The translations under genes were made by a program, and so were the position numbers. Below, one piece after another: positions 29,099 through 63,648 of a DNA stretch of 64,000 nucleotides. The notes beneath the pieces were generated by a model. The model saw only the letters and a list, made by a program, of their open reading frames with translations, was not told where the DNA came from and did not search any database. The stretch comes from Escherichia phage vB_EcoM_LNA4. How positions within the stretch are numbered: position 1 is the first letter of the stretch; the number at the start of each line of letters is the position of its first letter. The stretch is from sequence record MZ311864.1. One strand, 5' to 3'.

Positions 29099-30802
29099 AT
29101 GTTTCCTATTCCAAGCCTGTTCCTGCTAATGGCGGGTGGTGGTACAACACCCCTACCTCCTGGCGGGGTGAAAAAGATCGCTTTCTCCAGAGAACAAACA
29201 ACTGGTGTAAAAAGGTCTATGGCTATTCTTCTAACAGACGGAAGACTATACACCCAAGGTGATAACGCGTGGGGTGAATGTGCAGACGGAACAACAAGCC
29301 CGTTCTACGACCACTGGAAACTCGCTGCAAGTAATGTAGCAGATGTTTTCGGTGTTGGGAAGGCTTTTGTAGTAAAATATAATAATGGTGGCTGGCAGTA
29401 TGCGGGGGACCAAGGACAATTTACAGGTGTCACCTCTAACATGATGGCGTGGACAAGTTTCCCATCCTCAATCACAGGGACTGTGAACCTTGCAAACCTC
29501 TCCAGTGTTATTGGTGGGGGTGGTAACACGTTGTGGTTGATGAACAATGGAACGCTGTATGGTAGCGGGTCCAATGCGAATGGGTGCCTTGGGTCAGGAA
29601 ACAGTAACTCAATCTCTATCCCAAGAACCATCAGCACCTCTTGTGTCAGGGCATACGGTCTACAGGCCTGTACTACATACCTCAACAACGTCGGTGTTCC
29701 TCGTGTCTGCGGTTCTCCATACGGGATCAATGGCTCGTTTGTTGCTATTATGAGTTATGCAAACGTAACGTTCCCAGGTGCCACAGGAACAATCTACGCA
29801 AAAGAGTGGATGTGTAACGAATCAAACACCATCGCCATTGCCTCCACCGGGGCATCAGACACAGATCACTATCTGTATACTCGTGGTATCACAACCAGTA
29901 ATGGTGCATACGAGAAAGTTGCCGGGTTTGGGCCTTTCACAACCTTCCGTGTGATCGAGGGCGGTCAGTCAAGATTCTTTATCGCTGATGATGTTTTATA
30001 TGCTCTTGGTGATTCACAGCGTACCCTTGGGCTTGGAGACACCACAACAGCGGTAACTGTGCCGACTGTTATCCCTGTGCCTACCGGGGCAGATTGGGAC
30101 CTTAGCAAGCTGACTTACGTGGCTGACATGAAAGGCGATAACCTGTCACAAGGTGGGACTATCGGGCACTGGATAGTTTATGATGGGAACCTATTCTACA
30201 CTGGGAGCGCAAAAGGATTCTTCGGGACCACAACCTCTGTCGGTAAGTTCACCAACGTTCCAGAGAACTCTTTCGAGGGTATCCGTGCCGACTCTATCAC
30301 AACAGGATCAATTGGCGTGGCGATTGTTGGTACTACGAAACAGCTTACGTGGTCTATTGATCCACCGGGGGCTGAAATCTATGACCTACAGTTTAGCTCA
30401 AGTCATCCAGAGTTTGCAACAATTGATGCGAATGGGCTTATGACCTTCGTTGCTGAGGGGGGTTTTGACATCACCATGACGGCGAAGACAGGGACAAGCG
30501 CAACAACCTTGACAGATACTTCAGGGGGTTATGCTTCAACACTTGGAATGGCTACTGATAGCCTTTCTGCGATGACTGTCGGTGAGACAAAACAGCTTGT
30601 TTATACGGTAACACCAGCGGGTGTTGAGAACCTTGACGGGTACTCTATCTCCTTCTCCAGTGAAGACCCAACGGTTGCGACAGTAAGCTCTACCGGGCTG
30701 ATCACAGCAGTTGCTGATGGTGGGACTCGTATCCATGCGACGGCAGCGGTCCAGACCGTAACAGCAGACGATAGCTCTTATCTGTCAGTGAACGCACCAT
30801 AA
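29099..30802 (+). CDS. RCC1-like repeat protein with two C-terminal Ig-like (Big_2-type) domains
   Basis: 567 aa; repeats like YTQGDNAWGECADG and LYGSGSNANGCLGSG; two similar Ig-like modules at C-terminus; AGGAGG RBS. Confidence 0.55.
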   Translation: MFPIPSLFLLMAGGGTTPLPPGGVKKIAFSREQTTGVKRSMAILLTDGRLYTQGDNAWGECADGTTSPFYDHWKLAASNVADVFGVGKAFVVKYNNGGWQYAGDQGQFTGVTSNMMAWTSFPSSITGTVNLANLSSVIGGGGNTLWLMNNGTLYGSGSNANGCLGSGNSNSISIPRTISTSCVRAYGLQACTTYLNNVGVPRVCGSPYGINGSFVAIMSYANVTFPGATGTIYAKEWMCNESNTIAIASTGASDTDHYLYTRGITTSNGAYEKVAGFGPFTTFRVIEGGQSRFFIADDVLYALGDSQRTLGLGDTTTAVTVPTVIPVPTGADWDLSKLTYVADMKGDNLSQGGTIGHWIVYDGNLFYTGSAKGFFGTTTSVGKFTNVPENSFEGIRADSITTGSIGVAIVGTTKQLTWSIDPPGAEIYDLQFSSSHPEFATIDANGLMTFVAEGGFDITMTAKTGTSATTLTDTSGGYASTLGMATDSLSAMTVGETKQLVYTVTPAGVENLDGYSISFSSEDPTVATVSSTGLITAVADGGTRIHATAAVQTVTADDSSYLSVNAP

Positions 30803-35182: not shown

Positions 35183-35890
35183 TCATTTTGATTCCTCTTT
35201 ACGCCACTTGTAAGCACCATACACAGAGTTTAGCAGGAAAGTGACCCACATTGCAAGGTTTGCTGCTCCAGCACCTTCGTGGTGTAACGTCAGGTTAACC
35301 CACATACCTACCGCAACGATATTCACAATGATCCACACATACCACTGTTCAGCATAACGAGTCATCATTAAGTATGTTGCCAGTACAGACAGGATAGCTG
35401 TCGCTGCATCTGGACCTGGAAGTGAGCCTTTCAGCAGGGAGATCCCTTCGGCATACAAACCAATCACAATCAGTGTACTAATACCCACCAACCAACGTTG
35501 TTTTGTGGTCAGATAGTTCTTGATGACATCTGCACGTTCACCGTCAGCAGAAACGTTCAGCTTACGCGCCCAGATAATACCACCAATGACCTGCATAGGG
35601 GTGAATAGGACGGTGTACATGATCGTTTCGCCATACAGTTTATATGTGAATGACACATACGCATACAGCACTGTCGCGATGAAGCCCCAATAGTAGCTGG
35701 AAAGTTTACCTTTCGCAACCAAAATTGCACCGACGATACCTGTCACGGAAGAGATAAACTCCACCATAGTACCACCAGTGACGATAGAAACTGTCGCGAT
35801 GGATGCGGAACAGATCAGAAGCCAGAGGTATTCGAGTTTTGTCCAACCATAGAAGTCTGTCCAGGTTGTTTTTACGTATAGATTCATCAT
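35183..35890 (-). CDS. pnuC: nicotinamide riboside transporter PnuC-like
   Basis: 235 aa polytopic membrane protein; C-terminal LMMTRYAEQWYVWIIVNIVAVGMWV matches PnuC signature region. Confidence 0.75.
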   Translation of the reverse strand: MMNLYVKTTWTDFYGWTKLEYLWLLICSASIATVSIVTGGTMVEFISSVTGIVGAILVAKGKLSSYYWGFIATVLYAYVSFTYKLYGETIMYTVLFTPMQVIGGIIWARKLNVSADGERADVIKNYLTTKQRWLVGISTLIVIGLYAEGISLLKGSLPGPDAATAILSVLATYLMMTRYAEQWYVWIIVNIVAVGMWVNLTLHHEGAGAANLAMWVTFLLNSVYGAYKWRKEESK

Positions 35891-37496: not shown

Positions 37497-38570
37497 TTAT
37501 TCTCCTTTGATATTCAGCAAGTTACGGACAGCTTCTTCGGCCTTTTGAATACGATCTTCGTAATCACTGCCGGAGATAACCACCACCTTGCTTGTATCGT
37601 AAGATGCTCTGATCATTGTGTCAAGCAAAGAATGTGTTTCTTTACGCTTTTCTGGAGTATCCTGCAAGCGAAGAGGATCAGCAACCCACGGAACCTCTGG
37701 GGTGAGGAACAAGAACAAGTCATAGAAATTGTAGCCCTCTTCACGGCTCAGTGTCCGGAACAGCAGATCTGAGTAATCGATCTTGTCTGCACAAACACCA
37801 GAGAAGTGTGTGATCAGATTTGTGGTGTCGGAGAACATTACCCCACGGTCACCCCAACCTGCCACCTCCATCTCCTTCAGGCGGTGCTCCATTGCAATAC
37901 GCAGGTAATCCTCACGGGTCATTGCAAACTCGCTTGAATGATACTCACGCTCACAGATCAGCCTTCCGATCTCAGGAATCCAGGCAGCACCGAACGTGTG
38001 TGCCAAGTGTTCGGTCATGGTCGTTTTTCCTGTGCTCTCTACACCAATGATAGCCACCTTCTTAATGAAGCGCTTACGTGCAGGCCACGACAAGTGGTAG
38101 AAATTCTTGTACGGGTCATTACGGATCATTGTGGCTGAGACAGGAACAGCTTTACGTTCTGCGTCGATAACAACATGCTTCGCTTCAGGGAAGAACTCAC
38201 TGAAGTAAGACTCGTACTCCGGCTCAGAAGAGAAAGCAAAGTCGTACTTAACGAAAGGTTGTTTTTCACGGATCAGTTTTGCATAAGCAGCACCGCCTTC
38301 AGGGTATCCGGGGATATTCGACTCATCAACGTAGTCAACCTTCACGTTATCCAGACCCTCATCGGCAATAACATCCAGCAGGTCACGATAGCGGTCAGCA
38401 AGGCCCAACTTTGGACGAATCCACTCTGGTTGAGCGTCAACAAATTTCTGGTCATACGACAGGAACAGATACAGGCAACTTACCTGCGAGGCCGCCTGGC
38501 GAATGAACTCAATATGCCCGTTGGTCAGCGGTGCAAATTTTCCGAAGATAAGGCCGCGAGTCATAGTCAT
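37497..38570 (-). CDS. nadR: NadR-like bifunctional NMN adenylyltransferase / ribosylnicotinamide kinase
   Basis: ATG at 38570 with AGAAGG RBS; nucleotidyltransferase motif GKFAPLTNGHIEFI; P-loop IGVESTGKTT in C-terminal half. Confidence 0.75.
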   Translation of the reverse strand: MTMTRGLIFGKFAPLTNGHIEFIRQAASQVSCLYLFLSYDQKFVDAQPEWIRPKLGLADRYRDLLDVIADEGLDNVKVDYVDESNIPGYPEGGAAYAKLIREKQPFVKYDFAFSSEPEYESYFSEFFPEAKHVVIDAERKAVPVSATMIRNDPYKNFYHLSWPARKRFIKKVAIIGVESTGKTTMTEHLAHTFGAAWIPEIGRLICEREYHSSEFAMTREDYLRIAMEHRLKEMEVAGWGDRGVMFSDTTNLITHFSGVCADKIDYSDLLFRTLSREEGYNFYDLFLFLTPEVPWVADPLRLQDTPEKRKETHSLLDTMIRASYDTSKVVVISGSDYEDRIQKAEEAVRNLLNIKGE

Positions 38571-38571
38571 A

Positions 38572-38892
38572 TTATTGATCCTTCTGGCATTTGTAGACTT
38601 GTGACACACGGGTCACAGACTTTTTGGTTGGGTTGATAGATGACCCCTGATACCAGCGAGACTCTTCGCTCAGAACATTCCCCACCTGAGCATCCTTTTT
38701 AGGGATCACTGTGTCGATGCAGGTCTCACCCATACTATCCTTCATATGGGACCAAATGCTCAGAGAAAAACGCTCGATCTTGTTGCACACCTCGACCTTG
38801 CACATAGGTTCGGTCTGGAAATCATCATCTTCTTCCGCATGGGCGGCTCCAACAAAAGCCATAGCCAGCAGAGCAATCGTTAATTTTTTCAT
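38572..38892 (-). CDS. secreted small protein
   Basis: Signal peptide MKKLTIALLAMAFVGAAHA; several Cys. Confidence 0.5.
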   Translation of the reverse strand: MKKLTIALLAMAFVGAAHAEEDDDFQTEPMCKVEVCNKIERFSLSIWSHMKDSMGETCIDTVIPKKDAQVGNVLSEESRWYQGSSINPTKKSVTRVSQVYKCQKDQ

Positions 38893-40001: not shown

Positions 40002-40475
40002 TTAAATCCTCGCTTTGTTATTTACAATAGTGGAGATAACCGACTGATTAACTCCGTATAACCTTGCTAACGCTCTCGTTCCACGATCCCTTGAATACGG
40101 AACATATGCATCTCTGATCTCAGCCACTTGTAAATCTGTAAGCTTATGATGAGGATGCTCCTCATTCTTAACAGGCTTCAAAAGTCCGGTCTCTGAGGCA
40201 TGTTCCATATTCTCTTTTACGGTTGACCATTCGAGATTATCAACATGGTTGTTCTCTTTGTTACCGTCCTTGTGATTAACAAAGGGTTTGTCATCAGGGT
40301 TGGGAATATACTGCATTGCTACCAGTCTGTGAACAAGAAAGTTCCTAATCTTCCCATCTATAGTTGTATGAACCTTCATGTACCCATTTTTAAGACGGGT
40401 TTGTTTTATGACATTGCCCGTCTTTACCCTGGTAACAACCTTTCCGTCAACACTAACAACGAACAGGCTGTTCAT
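40002..40475 (-). CDS. HNH homing endonuclease (HNH_3-type)
   Basis: HRLVAMQYIPNPDDKPFVNHKDGNKENNHVDNLEWSTVKEN; C-terminal HTH-like region; AAGGAG RBS. Confidence 0.75.
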   Translation of the reverse strand: MNSLFVVSVDGKVVTRVKTGNVIKQTRLKNGYMKVHTTIDGKIRNFLVHRLVAMQYIPNPDDKPFVNHKDGNKENNHVDNLEWSTVKENMEHASETGLLKPVKNEEHPHHKLTDLQVAEIRDAYVPYSRDRGTRALARLYGVNQSVISTIVNNKARI

Positions 40476-56967: not shown

Positions 56968-57149
56968 TTCCAGTTCCCATTGAAAAGCCGCAGCACCAAG
57001 AGGTTCATGAAGTACAGGGGCCAAAGCAGGCCCATGAACACACCACCAAGAAGATCCATAGTGTCTAATCTCCAGAATTGCTGCGCTCTTTTCATGAAGA
57101 TATAAAACCCTACAAATGCGAACAGAAGATAGGTAATCCCAACCATCAC
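56964..57149 (-). CDS. small membrane protein
   Basis: 61 aa, two hydrophobic helices. Confidence 0.35.
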   Translation of the reverse strand: MMVGITYLLFAFVGFYIFMKRAQQFWRLDTMDLLGGVFMGLLWPLYFMNLLVLRLFNGNWK

Positions 57150-57637
57150 TTTTTCTCCGGAAGGATATAAACTGTTACATCACAATCCCAGAAAACAGAT
57201 TTGATCATCGCTTCAATGACGTTCCAGTCACCACCTGCAAGACCAGCACCGATTTTCGGGAAGCCGATTTTGTAGTCAGCCATAGAGCCGTCTGTAAAGC
57301 TCTGTAAGGCCTTCTTCATCTGATCCAACGAATCATACAGGGCATTGTAATCGAGGTCACGTAGGCCCTGTTTACGGCGATTATAACCATATTGCGAATA
57401 CAGATTAAATCCTGCGAGAGATCCGTCCTTCATGAAGGCCACAGTGAAGGTCCCAAGTTTGGCTTTATCACCTTTCTCGGTCTTCAGATCCGCAGCGTAC
57501 ATTTTAGGGAACGCTTCTTTGATCAGTGGAGCTATACCGCTACCCATTGTGCAATAACAATTGCAGCCATGCGCAAAAACATTAACCTCACCAGATTTCA
57601 CAGCCTCAATTAGGTCGCCTACTTTATACTTAAGCAT
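57146..57637 (-). CDS. macrodomain protein, TARG1/DarG-like ADP-ribosyl hydrolase family
   Basis: NVFAHGCNCYCTMGSGIAPLIKEAFP and KIGFPKIGAGLAGGDWNVIEAMIKSVF resemble TARG1-type macrodomain core motifs; GGAGGA RBS. Confidence 0.6.
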   Translation of the reverse strand: MLKYKVGDLIEAVKSGEVNVFAHGCNCYCTMGSGIAPLIKEAFPKMYAADLKTEKGDKAKLGTFTVAFMKDGSLAGFNLYSQYGYNRRKQGLRDLDYNALYDSLDQMKKALQSFTDGSMADYKIGFPKIGAGLAGGDWNVIEAMIKSVFWDCDVTVYILPEKK

Positions 57638-58140
57638 CAGTCCTCCACTATAATATCATGAATCGTTTTTACGTATGCTTGATAACATTCACTCGCTTCC
57701 TCAGCGGAGTCGAATGTTCCAAGGTGGATCTTACTATACACAGCATGGTATCTTAACCTAGTCCACCTTTTGTCTACGAATACACCACGGAATCCTGTTT
57801 GGTTCTTCTTTCCTCTGCTGTAATTGTAGACGTTTACAAACTTCTGGACATCCCTGAGGTTAGTAATACGATTGTTATCTTTTTGTCTGTCCTTGTGGTC
57901 AATAAAATAAGTGGGCCACACGCCGTAATAAAAAGCCCAGGCCACTCTGTGTGCCAAGAAGTAAAAACCTTTACCTTCAATCTTAACACCAAGCCTTACG
58001 TAACCGTCTTTTCTTTTTGTGCCTGCAACCTTTCCAAAATGACGACGAGCGAGAGGATTGATACACGTAAACAAACCTGTCTCAGGGTCATATGAGAAGG
58101 AAGATTTAAGCGCCTGTAATGCCTCTTCACTCTCCTTCAT
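57637..58140 (-). CDS. HNH endonuclease with AP2 domain
   Basis: LAHRVAWAFYYGVWPTYFIDHKDRQKDNNRITNL plus AP2-like GFRGVFVDKRWTRLRYHAVYSKIHLGTFDSAEEA. Confidence 0.75.
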   Translation of the reverse strand: MKESEEALQALKSSFSYDPETGLFTCINPLARRHFGKVAGTKRKDGYVRLGVKIEGKGFYFLAHRVAWAFYYGVWPTYFIDHKDRQKDNNRITNLRDVQKFVNVYNYSRGKKNQTGFRGVFVDKRWTRLRYHAVYSKIHLGTFDSAEEASECYQAYVKTIHDIIVED

Positions 58141-58358
58141 CAGTAATCCTCTTTCAGTATACTCATGATAGGCTCGATAAGATATTGAGCCTTAACCTTT
58201 TTATAACCACCAGGGTCAGGAACCTTCATTGTGATAACGTGATGTTCGCCAATGATCTCTATATCAAAGTCATCACATGAGAATGTTGCAACCCGCCCAA
58301 CAACTGTCAGGATTGATACCTGTTTTGGTCTTGAATCATCAAGAATCGTCATGCACAA
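58140..58358 (-). CDS. hypothetical small protein
   Basis: 72 aa ORF, start overlaps upstream stop. Confidence 0.4.
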   Translation of the reverse strand: MCMTILDDSRPKQVSILTVVGRVATFSCDDFDIEIIGEHHVITMKVPDPGGYKKVKAQYLIEPIMSILKEDY

Positions 58359-58579
58359 CTCCTTTCTATGAAAGCAGTCATGCTCTCACGAGCTTCTGCT
58401 TTGGTTTTAGCACAGACAACGAACACTCGATGCCCTTTATAGGTGTATCCTCCCATAACAATGTTGGCGGTGTCAAGCCACCAACGCTCGTTTAGTTCAG
58501 ATTTTGGGAATTTAAACTTAGCCATTAGCGATTGTACCATGCAACATGTGTGGCCCACTCTGGACGTGGTTTCCAGCAA
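58349..58579 (-). CDS. hypothetical small protein
   Basis: 76 aa ORF. Confidence 0.4.
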   Translation of the reverse strand: MLETTSRVGHTCCMVQSLMAKFKFPKSELNERWWLDTANIVMGGYTYKGHRVFVVCAKTKAEARESMTAFIERSCA

Positions 58580-58722
58580 CTTAGGTTCGACTCATACTTG
58601 TCGTTTTTGCACCAGTAACCGTCCCCATCGTCAGGGATGAATGCCCCGACCCTAACACAGTTTGTCCAGTCCTCCACGGACATAACATCAGCATAGTCCG
58701 GGATGGGTTTGAATTCTACCAT
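58525..58722 (-). CDS. hypothetical small Trp-rich protein
   Basis: 65 aa ORF. Confidence 0.35.
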   Translation of the reverse strand: MVEFKPIPDYADVMSVEDWTNCVRVGAFIPDDGDGYWCKNDKYESNLSCWKPRPEWATHVAWYNR

Positions 58723-59009
58723 AACTCCCCCTTCATTAAGACAATATGGTTGCGTTGAGCAAAGTCACGAACAAAGTGAACATACTCTTTGTCGTGTTCA
58801 GAAATCTTAGCCAGAATCGCCCCGGCAGATTCACCAGCAGTCCAAGAAGACTGGCAGAAACCACTGTCTTCTCGAATGTGACAGTTCTTTGCATCAGGAC
58901 CGTACTGGTCTTTCACGTAGTCGATATCGAGGGAGCCAAGACGAACAAGGCGATCATCGCCCTCTTTATCAACGATGTAAATATAACCGAAACCAGGTCT
59001 ACGACTCAT
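58716..59009 (-). CDS. hypothetical protein
   Basis: 97 aa ORF. Confidence 0.4.
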   Translation of the reverse strand: MSRRPGFGYIYIVDKEGDDRLVRLGSLDIDYVKDQYGPDAKNCHIREDSGFCQSSWTAGESAGAILAKISEHDKEYVHFVRDFAQRNHIVLMKGELW

Positions 59010-59154
59010 GCTTTGCTCTCCACGTAATATGGTAGGCGTCTGATCAGGTCTTCAGGAGCACCGTTCTCTGTCCAGGTAAGGCCCTGGTCACCAGACACAT
59101 AGCCTTTCCCGTTGACAAACTTGCGCCAGACATTGCGGAACTGGTTTTTGTAGA

Positions 59155-59376
59155 TCATTCGATCACGCTCCAGCCTTCATCCTGCCAGGATTCTCCACGA
59201 TACCAACCTGCCATAGGGCAACCGTCTTCTGCGTAGATACGACCACCAACCATTTCAAACCACTCATCACTGGTGAAATATTGGTTGCGTACACGCTTAC
59301 CTTCGCGCATGGCCTGCTGTGCTTCTTTCCAGGTTAATTTAGACACGGAATTGCCCCTTCTTGTTCTTGAAGCCAT
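59155..59376 (-). CDS. DUF2829-like small protein (possible Tad2-type sponge; tentative)
   Basis: 73 aa; pattern LTWKEAQQAMREGKRVRNQYF...GWYRGESWQDEGWSVIE recalled as resembling DUF2829. Confidence 0.35.
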   Translation of the reverse strand: MASRTRRGNSVSKLTWKEAQQAMREGKRVRNQYFTSDEWFEMVGGRIYAEDGCPMAGWYRGESWQDEGWSVIE

Positions 59377-59680
59377 TAGAGATCTTCTGACCAGCCAAGA
59401 ATTTCGGATTTGTCAGACGAGATTCAAAAGACTGACGGACCTTGTGTGCCAGCTTAGAGCAGTAATCCACATCGGACAGTGCTTCTTGGTTCGCTTTAAC
59501 ACGGATACGCTTCACACTCGGAACGATGGTCAGACCACCAAAGCCGTCAACGTAATAGAACTCGACCTCATAACCGTCAGTGGTCAGTTCGTTGAAGATT
59601 GGGAATGTCTGTTGCAGTGCCTCTTTATGTGCAAGAGACATCAGACGTTGTTGGTCGTTCAAAGTTTCAGTGATTTGCAT
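59339..59680 (-). CDS. hypothetical protein
   Basis: ATG at 59680 with GAGGA RBS. Confidence 0.4.
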   Translation of the reverse strand: MQITETLNDQQRLMSLAHKEALQQTFPIFNELTTDGYEVEFYYVDGFGGLTIVPSVKRIRVKANQEALSDVDYCSKLAHKVRQSFESRLTNPKFLAGQKISNGFKNKKGQFRV

Positions 59681-59738
59681 TGAGTTTATCCTCGTTTTGT
59701 TTGGTATGCACAAAGATTAACAGCCTCCGAAGAGGCTG

Positions 59739-60428
59739 TCAAATGTTTTTCGCAGGTTTTTTAGATGATCCTCGGTTGTAGGGTATTCCTCCCCACTCCA
59801 TGTTCTCAATTATATATCCATTGAAGCATGTCTCATCCCCACACTCGTGCTGTGTTTTTGTCAGGAATGTTATGTAATTTCGATCTTCTGTTACCATGTG
59901 TACACTGTACATTTCCCTGAACCTGTCACATCGCAAGATAGTTCCGGGGATGCTTACCTTATCCCTTGAAGGTTTGTAATAATTAGCCCGATCCTGGATA
60001 GACAGGTACGCACCAAGACAGGCGGCCTTCAGAGAGCAAGAGACCTTCAGATTATCAAAATCACCCCCGCTGATATACCACAGCAGGAGGGGTGGAGGAC
60101 AATCCTCAAACGCAACACCCGCCCATTCACCGAAGGGGAATATTCCCCTTTCGATAAAATTGAGGTGCCTGCGCTGTGTGTCTGTCTCCACATCAACATA
60201 ACTTCTTTTCTGCTTCAGGTCTATGCTTCTGTCGTAACTCTCCTCTCCCAACAAAGGTAAAGACCTTTTAAAGTAGTCTTCAGCAGCAAATTCAGGACTG
60301 TAGCTCTCCGAACCAAGGGAGATAACAGAGGCATAAGCCCATTCATCTCCACTGTTGATGCAGAGTTTAAGCTCATAAAACCCAAGCTCATGTTGTTGAC
60401 GATACAGAATCCAGCGATCTACAGACAC
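59739..60428 (-). CDS. hypothetical protein
   Basis: 229 aa ORF immediately downstream of AAA+ ATPase gene. Confidence 0.5.
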   Translation of the reverse strand: MSVDRWILYRQQHELGFYELKLCINSGDEWAYASVISLGSESYSPEFAAEDYFKRSLPLLGEESYDRSIDLKQKRSYVDVETDTQRRHLNFIERGIFPFGEWAGVAFEDCPPPLLLWYISGGDFDNLKVSCSLKAACLGAYLSIQDRANYYKPSRDKVSIPGTILRCDRFREMYSVHMVTEDRNYITFLTKTQHECGDETCFNGYIIENMEWGGIPYNRGSSKKPAKNI

Positions 60429-60437
60429 AAAGCCCCC

Positions 60438-61646
60438 TTAGTTCACGATTGCATCAACACCATCAGAGAAGTTCTTACGGTATTCTGTGATGATCTCCAT
60501 GACAACCGGGTATTTCTGGAGCAGTTTAGCAGGTAAACGCTCACGGTTCCCGGACATTAAGATCGCTTTACCGAAGGAGTTCTCCTGGATGAACGACATG
60601 AACACAGAACTAACGAAGTCGCGGTTGGATGCCGTATCATGCTGACCGAAGTTATCATACATATACTTCAGGAAGTTCGCAGCGAACGCGATTACCTCAT
60701 CGTCGGTATACTCTTTGTTCTGGATCGCCTTGCGTAACCAGATAGACCCCTGAGAGCCTAGAGTCCACAGGATATCCGAAGAGTCAGCACCCGTATGTTT
60801 GGTGAGTTTGCCACTCATAACATCTTGGATAGAGACCATTTTGGAGATACGGGTATGGTATTCCCACAGTTCGTTAGCCAGAGGCTTACCGATACTGCCC
60901 TGCAACGATGCCAGAGCCAGACGAGCAGACAACAGGCCAGCGTCATAATCGTACAGAATATCACTTGCCGTTACCCAGGTGCGTGGTGTGGCGTATGAAG
61001 GGGAGTTAATCTCCAGCATCTCTTCATAGTTCTCAATCTTACCTGGGTTTGCGCTCACAAAACCAACAACCGATGGATGGACATCGTTGTGCATGGCGTA
61101 GTCCTGCAACCAGACAGTCGTGTCGTAATCCAGTTCGACGAGGATCATACGGTTAGCTAGCGGAGCTTCCAGCATACTTACCGCAGTACCATCACCAGGG
61201 CGGTTGCCTGCACCTGCAAACACCGCACCTGCCGGGAATTTGTATGTACCGATCTTGTGATCAAGCATGATCTGATAGGCAACTTTCTGGAGATATGGTT
61301 CCGCGTGTAGCAATTCATCCAGGAATACAATACCCTTCCAGTTCGGGTCATCAGGCCAGAAGCTTGGAATAGCATACACAGTGCGTGTAATACCATTGTC
61401 GTCGGTTACGGGGATCTGCACCCCAACAACGTCAGACGGTTCTTTATCCGCAAGACGGAAGTCGATCAGGTTATCGTCGCGGTCACCAAACATCATGTTG
61501 GCTACCTGCTTCATTGCCTGGCTCTTGCCAAGACCTGCACCGCCAAACATCATCAGGGCGCGTCCACGACGCTGACAGAACTTCATCAGATCAGGCACAT
61601 CCCGAAGCGTGATACGGTTCTCGTCAAAAATGTTACGACTCGACAT
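60438..61646 (-). CDS. AAA+ ATPase (MoxR/AAA_5-like)
   Basis: Walker A MMFGGAGLGKSQ; Walker B IVFLDELLHA; ATG at 61646 with AAGGAG RBS. Confidence 0.6.
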   Translation of the reverse strand: MSSRNIFDENRITLRDVPDLMKFCQRRGRALMMFGGAGLGKSQAMKQVANMMFGDRDDNLIDFRLADKEPSDVVGVQIPVTDDNGITRTVYAIPSFWPDDPNWKGIVFLDELLHAEPYLQKVAYQIMLDHKIGTYKFPAGAVFAGAGNRPGDGTAVSMLEAPLANRMILVELDYDTTVWLQDYAMHNDVHPSVVGFVSANPGKIENYEEMLEINSPSYATPRTWVTASDILYDYDAGLLSARLALASLQGSIGKPLANELWEYHTRISKMVSIQDVMSGKLTKHTGADSSDILWTLGSQGSIWLRKAIQNKEYTDDEVIAFAANFLKYMYDNFGQHDTASNRDFVSSVFMSFIQENSFGKAILMSGNRERLPAKLLQKYPVVMEIITEYRKNFSDGVDAIVN

Positions 61647-61875
61647 TAGTTTGTCTCCTTTGTTCAAGATAGTTTTCGATTATCCCCTCTACATCTCCGG
61701 GGTCGATATCATTGTATAGGGTATGGATTCTCTCTGCAAGGTCTTTCGGCAATAACTTATCTGTTTGATGCACCCTACCAGCACCAAAAACCACATACCA
61801 TGCACGACGACTCAGGCGGTGCCGTTGACGAGGAACGTCCCTGTTAAAATCTAAAGGCTTCACTTCTCCACCCAT
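61633..61875 (-). CDS. hypothetical small protein
   Basis: 80 aa ORF. Confidence 0.35.
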   Translation of the reverse strand: MGGEVKPLDFNRDVPRQRHRLSRRAWYVVFGAGRVHQTDKLLPKDLAERIHTLYNDIDPGDVEGIIENYLEQRRQTNVES

Positions 61876-62231
61876 ACTCGATTCTCATCACACCAGTTGT
61901 AAAGATCTTTCATGATGTCGTTGAACTCCCGCATCGGTGTATAATGCCGGATCGGATCTGCATCATGCCCCTCTGCCTCACATTCCGCAATGGAAGCCTG
62001 CCACTCAAGATATGTAGGGACATCCCGGAAATAGATTATAATATCAACAAGGTCTGCATCACACTGAACGCTGTCGTAGCTTGCCTTGTTCGGGAATTTA
62101 AATTCCAGACGACGAGCAATCTCTTTCGCAAGCTCATGAACTGTTTTATCAGTCCAATCTTCAGGGCCACACTCGCCGTTTCGCTTTCTCCACACATCAT
62201 CAATGCGGAGGGTTTGTTTCCACTCAGCCAT
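61860..62231 (-). CDS. hypothetical protein
   Basis: 123 aa acidic ORF. Confidence 0.45.
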   Translation of the reverse strand: MAEWKQTLRIDDVWRKRNGECGPEDWTDKTVHELAKEIARRLEFKFPNKASYDSVQCDADLVDIIIYFRDVPTYLEWQASIAECEAEGHDADPIRHYTPMREFNDIMKDLYNWCDENRVWVEK

Positions 62232-62921: not shown

Positions 62922-63142
62922 TCTTTGCTCCTGTATAGAGTCACTTTGTAAAGATTCTGATCGTAAATCAAAAAAGGCCTTGACACCGGACCGACAGACC
63001 TGTATCTACGATTCACCTGAATGTAGCCGCGCTCCTCCAACTTGAGAACGAGCTTACTTACTTTCCATGAAGGAATTCCCAGCAGGAACCCCATCTGTTT
63101 CTGAGTATACTTGTTTGTGCGGAGCAGTGTCAATAGATTCAT
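62786..63142 (-). CDS. putative HTH DNA-binding protein (3' extent uncertain)
   Basis: N-terminal helix-turn-helix-like segment LRTNKYTQKQMGFLLGIPSWKVSKLVLKLEERGYI; C-terminal half overlaps another ORF. Confidence 0.35.
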   Translation of the reverse strand: MNLLTLLRTNKYTQKQMGFLLGIPSWKVSKLVLKLEERGYIQVNRRYRSVGPVSRPFLIYDQNLYKVTLYRSKECPEIKVTPTKVQSKNPASAGRGLRNFAKRLVTGCLTSIQRPEKS

Positions 63143-63648
63143 AATTGCGACAGCATGTTGATTGCTTCGTGATGTTCTTTCATCTTTGTCAGACGAAGAT
63201 ACATGTCATGGTACTTACGAATACGAAGCAAGTCTTTATCGCTAAGTCCTTTCAGACGACGAACATCAGAGTTGTGTCGCAGGTCTGCGAGCTTAACACG
63301 GATTGCATCGTAGTTTCTTGCAATACCCTGGAAATACTCCTCCGGTGTCTGATTTGGTGTTTTCGTCAAAAGAACCACAGCATCTTTAACACGATTAGAG
63401 AAGCCCAACAGCACTAGGTCAGCAGCCGTCACATCGGTATCTTCCACCACATCGTGAAGAGCCGCGATAGCCATAAGCTGAAAATCATCGCTCTTCAGGT
63501 AGTGCATCACCTTTAGCGGGTGGAGGATGTAGGGGTTACCACCCTTATCTTTCTGATTCAGGTGTCCTTCTGCTGCAATCTTGATAGCCAGGGCAAGTTC
63601 TTGCGCCGGGGTTAAAACTGGAATCGTGGAATTGTAAGTTCGTACCAT
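63139..63648 (-). CDS. HD-domain small alarmone hydrolase (SpoT/Mesh1-like (p)ppGpp hydrolase family)
   Basis: EGHLNQKDKGGNPYILHPLKV...AIAALHDVVEDTDVT matches HD-domain ppGpp hydrolase pattern; GGAG RBS. Confidence 0.65.
   Translation of the reverse strand: MVRTYNSTIPVLTPAQELALAIKIAAEGHLNQKDKGGNPYILHPLKVMHYLKSDDFQLMAIAALHDVVEDTDVTAADLVLLGFSNRVKDAVVLLTKTPNQTPEEYFQGIARNYDAIRVKLADLRHNSDVRRLKGLSDKDLLRIRKYHDMYLRLTKMKEHHEAINMLSQL

Follow-up and report, generated by a model that had tools for sequence, protein, structure and literature searches.

Does the short open reading frame (ORF) at positions 59155..59376 on the minus strand of a 64,000-nucleotide stretch of Escherichia phage vB_EcoM_LNA4 (MZ311864.1; the whole stretch is hereafter the window) encode a Tad2-like anti-defence protein, and, if so, what might that protein do? 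A preliminary description of the window had likened the product to DUF2829, the family of the Tad2 sponges that counter Thoeris immunity. Here, we propose that the ORF encodes a remote, minimal member of the Tad2-like/DUF2829 superfamily (PF11195), an assignment in which we have high confidence. The resemblance first described is real by remote methods, namely intermediate sequences, profile-profile alignment, and structure comparison, whereas a direct transfer to this protein of the function that came with it, a sponge for isomers of cyclic ADP-ribose (cADPR), is not supported.

Membership of the superfamily is well supported because the intermediates, the profile-profile alignments, and the structural matches agree. 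The PF11195 model matches one of 15 close homologues (E 0.016) and 71 of 147 family representatives at E<=1 (best E 2.4e-7), no other Pfam family comes near it in match count among these 147, and the clade of the LNA4 protein itself sits at or under the detection limit of the model. For the profile-profile comparison, the template was an alignment of 14 Tad2 sequences taken from Table S2 of Hadary et al. 2025 (SPO1 Tad2, MoTad2, HgmTad2, and eleven screened homologues). In hhalign, an alignment of close homologues reached 91.8% against this template over the N-terminal 28 columns, and an alignment of 120 domain sequences from the family at large reached 96.8% (E 2.6e-10, score 50.7) over 65 columns, covering the full length of both with one large deletion. 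The controls gave 3.2% with a reversed template and at most 1.0% with 20 column shuffles, with scores of at most 15.7.

The structural evidence points the same way. An AlphaFold2 model computed from a 15-sequence alignment (predicted local distance difference test, pLDDT, 90.4; predicted template modelling score, pTM, 0.74) has a helix α1 at the N-terminus packed on an antiparallel β-sheet and a short C-terminal helix, as expected of the core fold. When this model was compared with the PDB by Foldseek, the best nine matches were all Tad2 (SPO1 Tad2 8wje, 8sme, 8smf, and 8smg; SptTad2 8wjd; ModTad2 9eib), with probabilities of 0.72-0.97 and query template modelling (TM) scores of 0.60-0.70, and the tenth match had a probability of 0.12 and a TM of 0.32. 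The nearest models in BFVD are uncharacterised family members, followed by proteins of 60-63 amino acids (aa) named "DUF2829 domain-containing" in UniProt and by several "Thoeris anti-defense 2-like" proteins. Related proteins of 60-63 aa are already labelled DUF2829 in that database, and the gene represents a known anti-defence family in divergent, minimal form and not a new kind of system. Searches of PDB sequences with the family profiles placed ModTad2, the Tad2 chain 8v3e, and SptTad2 among the top matches (E 0.3-1.7), a suggestive result that is limited to the N-terminal helix-strand motif and is not significant. A phmmer search of the same sequences had trigger factor as its sole match, which we judged to be a chance hit.

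What, precisely, does the gene encode? Read from its ATG, the ORF specifies 73 aa (MASRTRRGNSVSKLTWKEAQQAMREGKRVRNQYFTSDEWFEMVGGRIYAEDGCPMAGWYRGESWQDEGWSVIE), the length given in the preliminary description. The strings quoted there are present, with TWKEAQQAMREGKRVR exact, except that five residues rather than three separate GW from the next W in the C-terminal pattern (GW-YRGES-WQDEGWSVIE). The length is another matter, as the real start is probably the GTG at 59346, giving a 63-aa product (MSKLTWKEAQQ...) with a predicted mass of 7.5 kDa, an isoelectric point (pI) of 4.87, and a net charge of -3.5. We place the start there because of the AAGGGG site in front of it (Table 1), because an overlap of 8 nucleotides (nt) with the upstream ORF is shared with Cronobacter phage GAP31 (where GAP31_022 and GAP31_021 overlap by the same length and GAP31_021 is annotated as 63 aa), because homologues measure 58-72 aa and mostly 63-65 aa, and because the match to PHROG 3474 (64 positions) is confined to residues 13-73 of the longer reading. 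The overlap suggests translational coupling to the upstream ORF. The ATG has only a weak AGAAGA in front of it, and the ten codons at 59347..59376 that it would add, which fall outside the conserved profile and lack a counterpart in nearly all homologues, are probably not translated.

The ORF is real and encodes a genuine, conserved phage protein. By tblastn, 455 phage records encode a homologue, which is close to full length in 441, with protein identities of 35-98%, the closest protein match being that of Enterobacter phage FENT2 (98%). The hosts are chiefly Klebsiella (169 records), Escherichia (109), and Salmonella (74), with Citrobacter, Erwinia, Campylobacter, Pseudomonas, and Aeromonas also represented, and the genomes range from ~48 kilobases (kb) to ~174 kb, including rV5-like, T4-like (Klebsiella/Citrobacter), T5-like, and Felix-O1-sized phages. 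Nearly every match listed is annotated "hypothetical protein". An exhaustive profile search yielded 311 representatives of 50%-identity clusters at E<=1e-3, mostly of 58-70 aa. Within the window, no paralogue of the gene was found; literature searches by accession, locus tag, and PHROG identifier returned nothing on it, and the supplements of the Sequestin/Lockin paper (Tal et al. 2025) held no match to its motif.

The gene also changes its neighbours from one phage group to another. In the T5-like Salmonella phage SB6, the homologue (L002, 5001..5201) lies ~9 kb from the left end and 5 kb from gene A2, and one T5-like record (KU927497.2) holds two copies; the position and the two copies suggest that the T5-like homologue belongs to the terminal-repeat, pre-early (first-step-transfer) region. 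In the T4-like Citrobacter phage Merlin, it sits in a cluster of small genes between nrdH and gp55. A conserved two-gene module with the coupled upstream ORF was not found, the upstream genes in SB6 and Merlin being unrelated. Because the upstream neighbours differ in this way, the gene must move by itself, like sponge and other accessory genes.

How far does the protein resemble a Tad2 whose ligand is known? In SPO1 Tad2, helix α1 is followed by strands β1-β5, with extended β2-β3 and β4-β5 loops that bear α2 and α3; protomers pair as V-shaped dimers via α2 and β2, two dimers interlock along α1 into a tetramer, and the pocket for glycocyclic ADP-ribose (gcADPR) lies between two non-dimeric protomers (Yirmiya et al.). 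One protomer contributes the β1-β2 loop, the β3-β4 loop, and strand β4 to this pocket, and the other contributes its β1-β2 loop, the β4-α3 loop, and helix α3; the ligand is contacted by W25, N26, W73, and D79, along with I63, T65, and T78 and the water-coordinating D67, H71, and S76 (Yirmiya et al.). In HgmTad2 and SptTad2, the β2-β3/5 insertion builds a separate pocket for cyclic dinucleotides, and the HgmTad2 substitutions W21A/N22A and S90A/T92A/D93A abolish gcADPR binding (Li et al.).

Compared with these proteins, the LNA4 protein consists of the core only, keeping α1 and the antiparallel sheet that form the gcADPR pocket in Tad2. At 63 aa, it is shorter than SPO1 Tad2 and MoTad2 (88-89 aa), the SptTad2 chain in the PDB (101 aa), and HgmTad2 (151 aa). 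The β2-β3 insertion (SPO1 residues ~38-61), which carries α2 in Tad2 and forms the cyclic-dinucleotide site in HgmTad2, is absent and appears in hhalign as a single deletion; in the model, it is replaced by a tight three-residue turn at residues 33-35 (V-G-G) that joins strands 30-33 and 36-39. The two ends are shared with SPO1 Tad2, ModTad2/MoTad2, HgmTad2, and SptTad2, as an N-terminal x-EA-xx-A/L-M/L-K-x-G-K-K-V and a C-terminal G/D-W-x-I/V.

At the level of single residues (numbered in the 63-aa form throughout), the hhalign profile alignment, which leaves a one-position ambiguity in the gap from W48 to W59, pairs SPO1 W25 with F24, N26 with T25, I63 with I37, T65 with A39, the water-coordinating D67 with D41, H71 with M45, W73 with W48, S76 with G51, T78 with E52, D79 with S53 (E52 being adjacent), and the invariant W85 with W59. 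The GWNG motif of Tad2 reads YFTS in the LNA4 protein. By this alignment, an aromatic residue at each of the two ligand-stacking positions (F24 and W48) and the hydrophobic floor of the pocket appear to be retained.

The pattern of conservation (weighted, over 120 family members) adds to this picture. The best conserved positions are A9 (98%), G16 (97%), W59 (96%), E28 (95%), and E40 (92%), followed by F24 (88%), G58 (87%), G42 (83%), and M13 (71%), and the column of residue 21 is 84% His, with Asn in the clade of the LNA4 protein. A9, G16, F24, and W59 match the conserved canonical Tad2 residues A10, G17, W25, and W85; H/N21, E28, and E40 are conserved specifically in the subfamily, whose clade signature is M-T-x-x-E-A...G-K-K-V-x-H/N-x-Y-F-T-x-D-E...E-D-G...G-W. 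H/N21 directly precedes the β1-β2 loop, E28 lies in that loop, and E40 lies in the β3-β4 loop, both of which line the pocket in Tad2. This concentration of the conserved polar residues of the subfamily in or beside the pocket loops would favour a sponge. Conservation on the surface of α1 (E8, A9, A12, and M13) is in turn suggestive of oligomerisation. An AlphaFold2 model of P0102, a relative with tandem domains, was uninformative on domain packing (pLDDT 39).

If the gene encodes a minimal Tad2-like protein, what might its role be during infection? The reading we favour, to which we give an even chance, is that it is an oligomeric sponge for an immune signal derived from ADP-ribose, possibly with altered specificity. 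The protein would be made early, from a stand-alone accessory gene, and would assemble as a homo-oligomer through the conserved α1 surface; a nucleotide-derived immune signal would then be sequestered in an inter-subunit pocket homologous to that for gcADPR/His-ADPR (histidine-ADP-ribose), with F24/T25 (β1-β2 loop), E28, E40/D41 (β3-β4 loop), and W48 as its putative lining, and the host effector would be kept inactive through this sequestration. The best candidate ligand would be an ADP-ribose-based Thoeris signal. It may not be 3'cADPR, because the polar residues of the pocket differ from those of canonical Tad2, and we consider the canonical 3'cADPR specificity improbable at best.

The sponge reading draws on several likenesses, besides the aromatic residues apparently retained at the two stacking positions, the change of neighbours between phage groups, and the presence of macrodomain and NAD+ salvage genes in the same arm. 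Like Tad2, the LNA4 protein is a small, acidic product of a stand-alone phage gene, and its pI and net charge are nearly identical to those of SPO1 Tad2 (4.87 and -3.5 versus 4.9 and -3.4). Known sponges are likewise comparable to it in size and charge and in their context as stand-alone early genes. The same logic is proposed here as for the other small, oligomeric phage sponges of immune nucleotides, Tad1, Acb2, Acb4, Sequestin, Lockin, and TadIV-1, although their folds are unrelated to that of the LNA4 protein (TadIV-1, Acb2, and Sequestin are two-helix structures) and none of the six was found among its structural matches. TadIV-1, the N7-cADPR sponge of T4, is a 92-aa two-helix dimer in which a flexible N-terminal loop forms the pocket; a protein of this type is rejected on fold, the LNA4 model being mainly β-sheet with one helix. 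The Tad2 pocket is plastic, with homologues that bind 3'cADPR, His-ADPR, N7-cADPR, or the cyclic mononucleotides cUMP and cCMP. Tad2_79, in which Ser takes the place of N26 and Glu that of D79, nonetheless remains active against Thoeris of types I and IV (Hadary et al. 2025, bioRxiv 10.1101/2025.08.24.671296), so these two positions tolerate change.

A number of observations nevertheless weigh against a sponge of this kind. The search with a DUF2829 hidden Markov model (HMM), which the preliminary description had offered as the check on its proposal, came back empty: hmmscan against Pfam returned no family at E<=10, PF11195 included, for either the 73-aa or the 63-aa form. The 18 Tad2 proteins that have been tested all fall outside the subfamily, each scoring at most 16 bits against the subfamily HMM, with which members score 40-106 bits in a database search. 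Helix α2, part of the Tad2 dimer interface, is lost with the insertion, and because it is missing a tetramer is not assured. In the alignment, N26 and D79, the chief polar contacts, appear as T25 and S53, and subfamily members vary in the column that corresponds to D79; in HgmTad2, the equivalents of these two residues belong to the groups W21/N22 and S90/T92/D93, whose substitution, as noted above, abolishes gcADPR binding. The domain is also fused to unrelated C-terminal modules (a peptide deformylase, a SEC-C motif, or a basic tail), and these fusions fit a more general binding module. Lastly, Tad2_80, the only insertion-less homologue to have been assayed, failed to inhibit type I or type II Thoeris, several other assays of this protein having failed at transformation (Hadary et al. 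2025). At 73 aa and with a short hairpin in place of the long β2-β3 insertion, Tad2_80 is similar to the LNA4 protein, yet it has Trp at the W25 position (an EWPD motif), keeps the Asp of D79, and scores 5.7 bits against the HMM of the mini-family. Tad2_80 does not belong to the same clade; nor, in view of these differences and of its failure against Thoeris I and II, is it a positive precedent.

The main rival to the sponge reading, which we regard as a serious possibility while thinking it short of probable, gives the protein the DUF2829 fold but, in place of a sponge function, the role of a binding module, whose partner would be a macromolecule of host or phage or else a metabolite unconnected with immunity; its likeness to Tad2 would then reflect shared ancestry only. 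It would account for the replacement of the key polar Tad2 contacts and for the presence of near-invariant residues of the subfamily's own (H/N21, E28, and E40), and it agrees with the report that AcrIIA7, a DUF2829 protein, acts by a non-sponge mechanism. It also agrees with the variety of architectures in which the domain occurs. In six relatives (P0020, P0021, P0027, P0033, P0036, and P0138), the domain is followed by a C-terminal extension with a tail at its end that is conserved and highly basic (…YKGKGHNKLQKRKKK), of the KGKGHNKLQKRKKK type; further architectures are found in P0078, P0080, P0151, P0132, P0059, P0060, and P0102, the fusions including a SEC-C zinc motif in three proteins and a peptide deformylase in P0132 (PF01327, E 2.7e-36), and the domain also occurs duplicated in tandem in a single chain. 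Set against this are the gathering of the conserved positions in or beside the loops of the Tad2 small-molecule pocket, the conservation of the α1 oligomerisation helix, the sponge-like size, charge, and stand-alone early-gene context, and the fact that, in the literature examined, the DUF2829 proteins with a demonstrated ligand all bind nucleotides or RNA.

A bolder form of the sponge reading, which we hold to be doubtful, is that the mini-Tad2 clade, present in at least 455 phage genomes, is a sponge lineage of its own. Its members would form a dimer or an alternative oligomer without α2 and, in a remodelled pocket (H/N21, F24, E28, E40, and W48), would bind a signal that canonical Tad2 does not, possibly one not yet identified in Enterobacteriaceae.

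Less likely still is a sponge for a signal outside Thoeris, either the cCMP/cUMP of Pycsar or the cyclic oligonucleotides of CBASS, after the manner of MoTad2, Tad2_70, and HgmTad2 at a second site. Members of the Tad2 family do bind cUMP/cCMP and cyclic dinucleotides, and the pocket chemistry of the LNA4 protein is unlike that of the canonical gcADPR site. The second site of HgmTad2, however, is built within the dimeric unit by the β2-β5 insertion, which the LNA4 protein lacks, and the second site of MoTad2 lies at the same A-C interface. Capture of a Pycsar or CBASS signal through a second Tad2 site is thus unlikely because the site depends on the missing insertion.

We think it very unlikely that the protein is an RNA binder of the AcrIIA7 kind, a tetramer with a positive groove that captures a structured RNA, such as the trans-activating CRISPR RNA (tracrRNA), and so blocks RNA-guided defence. 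Type II CRISPR-Cas9 is not typical of the enterobacterial hosts of such phages. The DUF2829 core is common to both proteins, but pdAcrIIA7 adds to it head and extended domains and holds the tracrRNA in a basic groove (Lee & Park 2026, PMC13133391), whereas the LNA4 protein is acidic (pI and net charge as above) and has the core domain only; it is on this charge and this architecture that we reject the mechanism. Moreover, the structure deposited as "AcrIIA7" under 8kbi is apo-HgmTad2, for which no anti-Cas9 activity was seen (Li et al.). Finally, the idea that the ORF is a chance or mis-called frame without a protein product, for which one could cite its shortness and the overlap of its 5' end with the upstream ORF, is excluded by conservation across 455 records of several unrelated phage groups and 311 cluster representatives, the confident fold prediction, and the presence of a ribosome-binding site and coupled start.

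Does the neighbourhood of the gene bear on its role? The window comes from a Seunavirus-type phage (rV5-like, Vequintavirinae), with nucleotide identity over 57000-62000 of 94% to GAP31, 93.5% to Enterobacter phage EC152, and 89% to Escherichia phage 4MG, and the gene sits within a long minus-strand run of small genes (Table 1). Downstream of it are five small ORFs without a Pfam match, then an HNH endonuclease, then a macrodomain gene. Macrodomains bind or hydrolyse ADP-ribose derivatives, and this one could have a role in ADP-ribose-based signalling or against ADP-ribosylating defences. A PnuC-like and a NadR-like gene together make up a pair for nicotinamide-riboside uptake and NAD+ salvage, which could offset NAD+-depleting defences. 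The preliminary description had placed the Tad2-like gene in the same arm as the macrodomain and NAD+ salvage genes, and this is correct, all of them sharing the minus strand, but the macrodomain gene alone is a close neighbour (1.5 kb), the salvage genes being 21-24 kb off. In the early-gene arm, the two HNH_3 ORFs probably represent mobile insertions.

Upstream of the gene lie ORFs of 113-124 aa, 229 aa (59739..60428), and 409 aa. No Pfam family was matched by the last of these at E<=0.01, so the ATPase annotation of its GAP31 counterpart has a weaker basis than its name suggests. The hairpin immediately 5' of the two-gene unit resembles an intrinsic terminator for minus-strand transcription. 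A promoter scan gave a count not above the shuffle expectation, and we claim no promoter. Elsewhere in the window, a 169-aa HD-domain protein is encoded (63139..63648, minus strand; HD_4, E 2.5e-4, below the Pfam cut-off); its counterpart in GAP31 carries the label metal-dependent phosphohydrolase, and nucleotide second messengers are possible targets of it. A 567-aa protein (29099..30802, plus strand), found in a plus-strand block of large ORFs, has RCC1-like repeats and two C-terminal Big_2 Ig-like domains and is possibly a fibre or decoration protein.

Table 1. Features of the mini Tad2-like gene and its surroundings in the window (CDS, coding sequence; NMN, nicotinamide mononucleotide; bp, base pairs).
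Feature	Position	Strand	Remarks
Mini Tad2-like CDS	59155..59346	-	GTG start; stop codon 59155-59157 included; 63 aa
In-frame N-terminal extension, 10 codons (MASRTRRGNS)	59347..59376	-	within 3' end of upstream ORF; probably not translated
Shine-Dalgarno-like AAGGGG	59354..59359	-	7 nt 5' of GTG; read from sequence
Start/stop overlap of 8 nt, GTGTCTAA	59339..59346	-	with upstream ORF 59339..59713
Codons 22-27 (QYFTSD)	59266..59283	-	first six residues of β1-β2 loop (22-29)
Codons 40-42 (EDG)	59221..59229	-	β3-β4 loop; E40 subfamily-specific
Codons 48-59 (WYRGESWQDEGW)	59170..59205	-	W48, S53, W59 aligned to W73, D79, W85
Strong GC-rich hairpin, 11-bp stem, GAAG/CTTC loop	59717..59742	both	between 229-aa ORF and ORF upstream of the gene
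Macrodomain protein, 163 aa	57146..57637	-	PF01661, E 1e-5; 1.5 kb downstream; GAP31 counterpart annotated "phosphatase"
HNH_3 homing-endonuclease-like ORF	57637..58140	-	also weak AP2 domain match
Second HNH_3 homing-endonuclease-like ORF	40002..40475	-	
409-aa ORF	60438..61667	-	GAP31 counterpart annotated ATPase, similar to MoxR ATPase of phage PVP-SE1
PnuC-like NMN transporter	35183..35890	-	PF04973, E 3e-37
NadR-like NMN adenylyltransferase/kinase	37497..38609	-	cytidylyltransferase-like and AAA_28 domains

Tad2 sponges neutralise types I, II, and IV Thoeris, some CBASS systems, and Pycsar, and single residue changes retune their specificity. What is new here is an abundant, insertion-less clade with a remodelled pocket, no member of which is among the 18 tested Tad2 proteins. 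This branch is common in well-studied enterobacterial phages, among them members of the BASEL collection and therapeutic candidates that infect Klebsiella, Salmonella, and E. coli. Should its members prove not to be sponges, the DUF2829 label should not default to "anti-Thoeris". As a compact branch without the insertion, it would show what the smallest ligand-binding unit of the Tad2 fold is; it could also bring a new specificity for ligands to light and would improve the annotation of anti-defence content in phage genomes.

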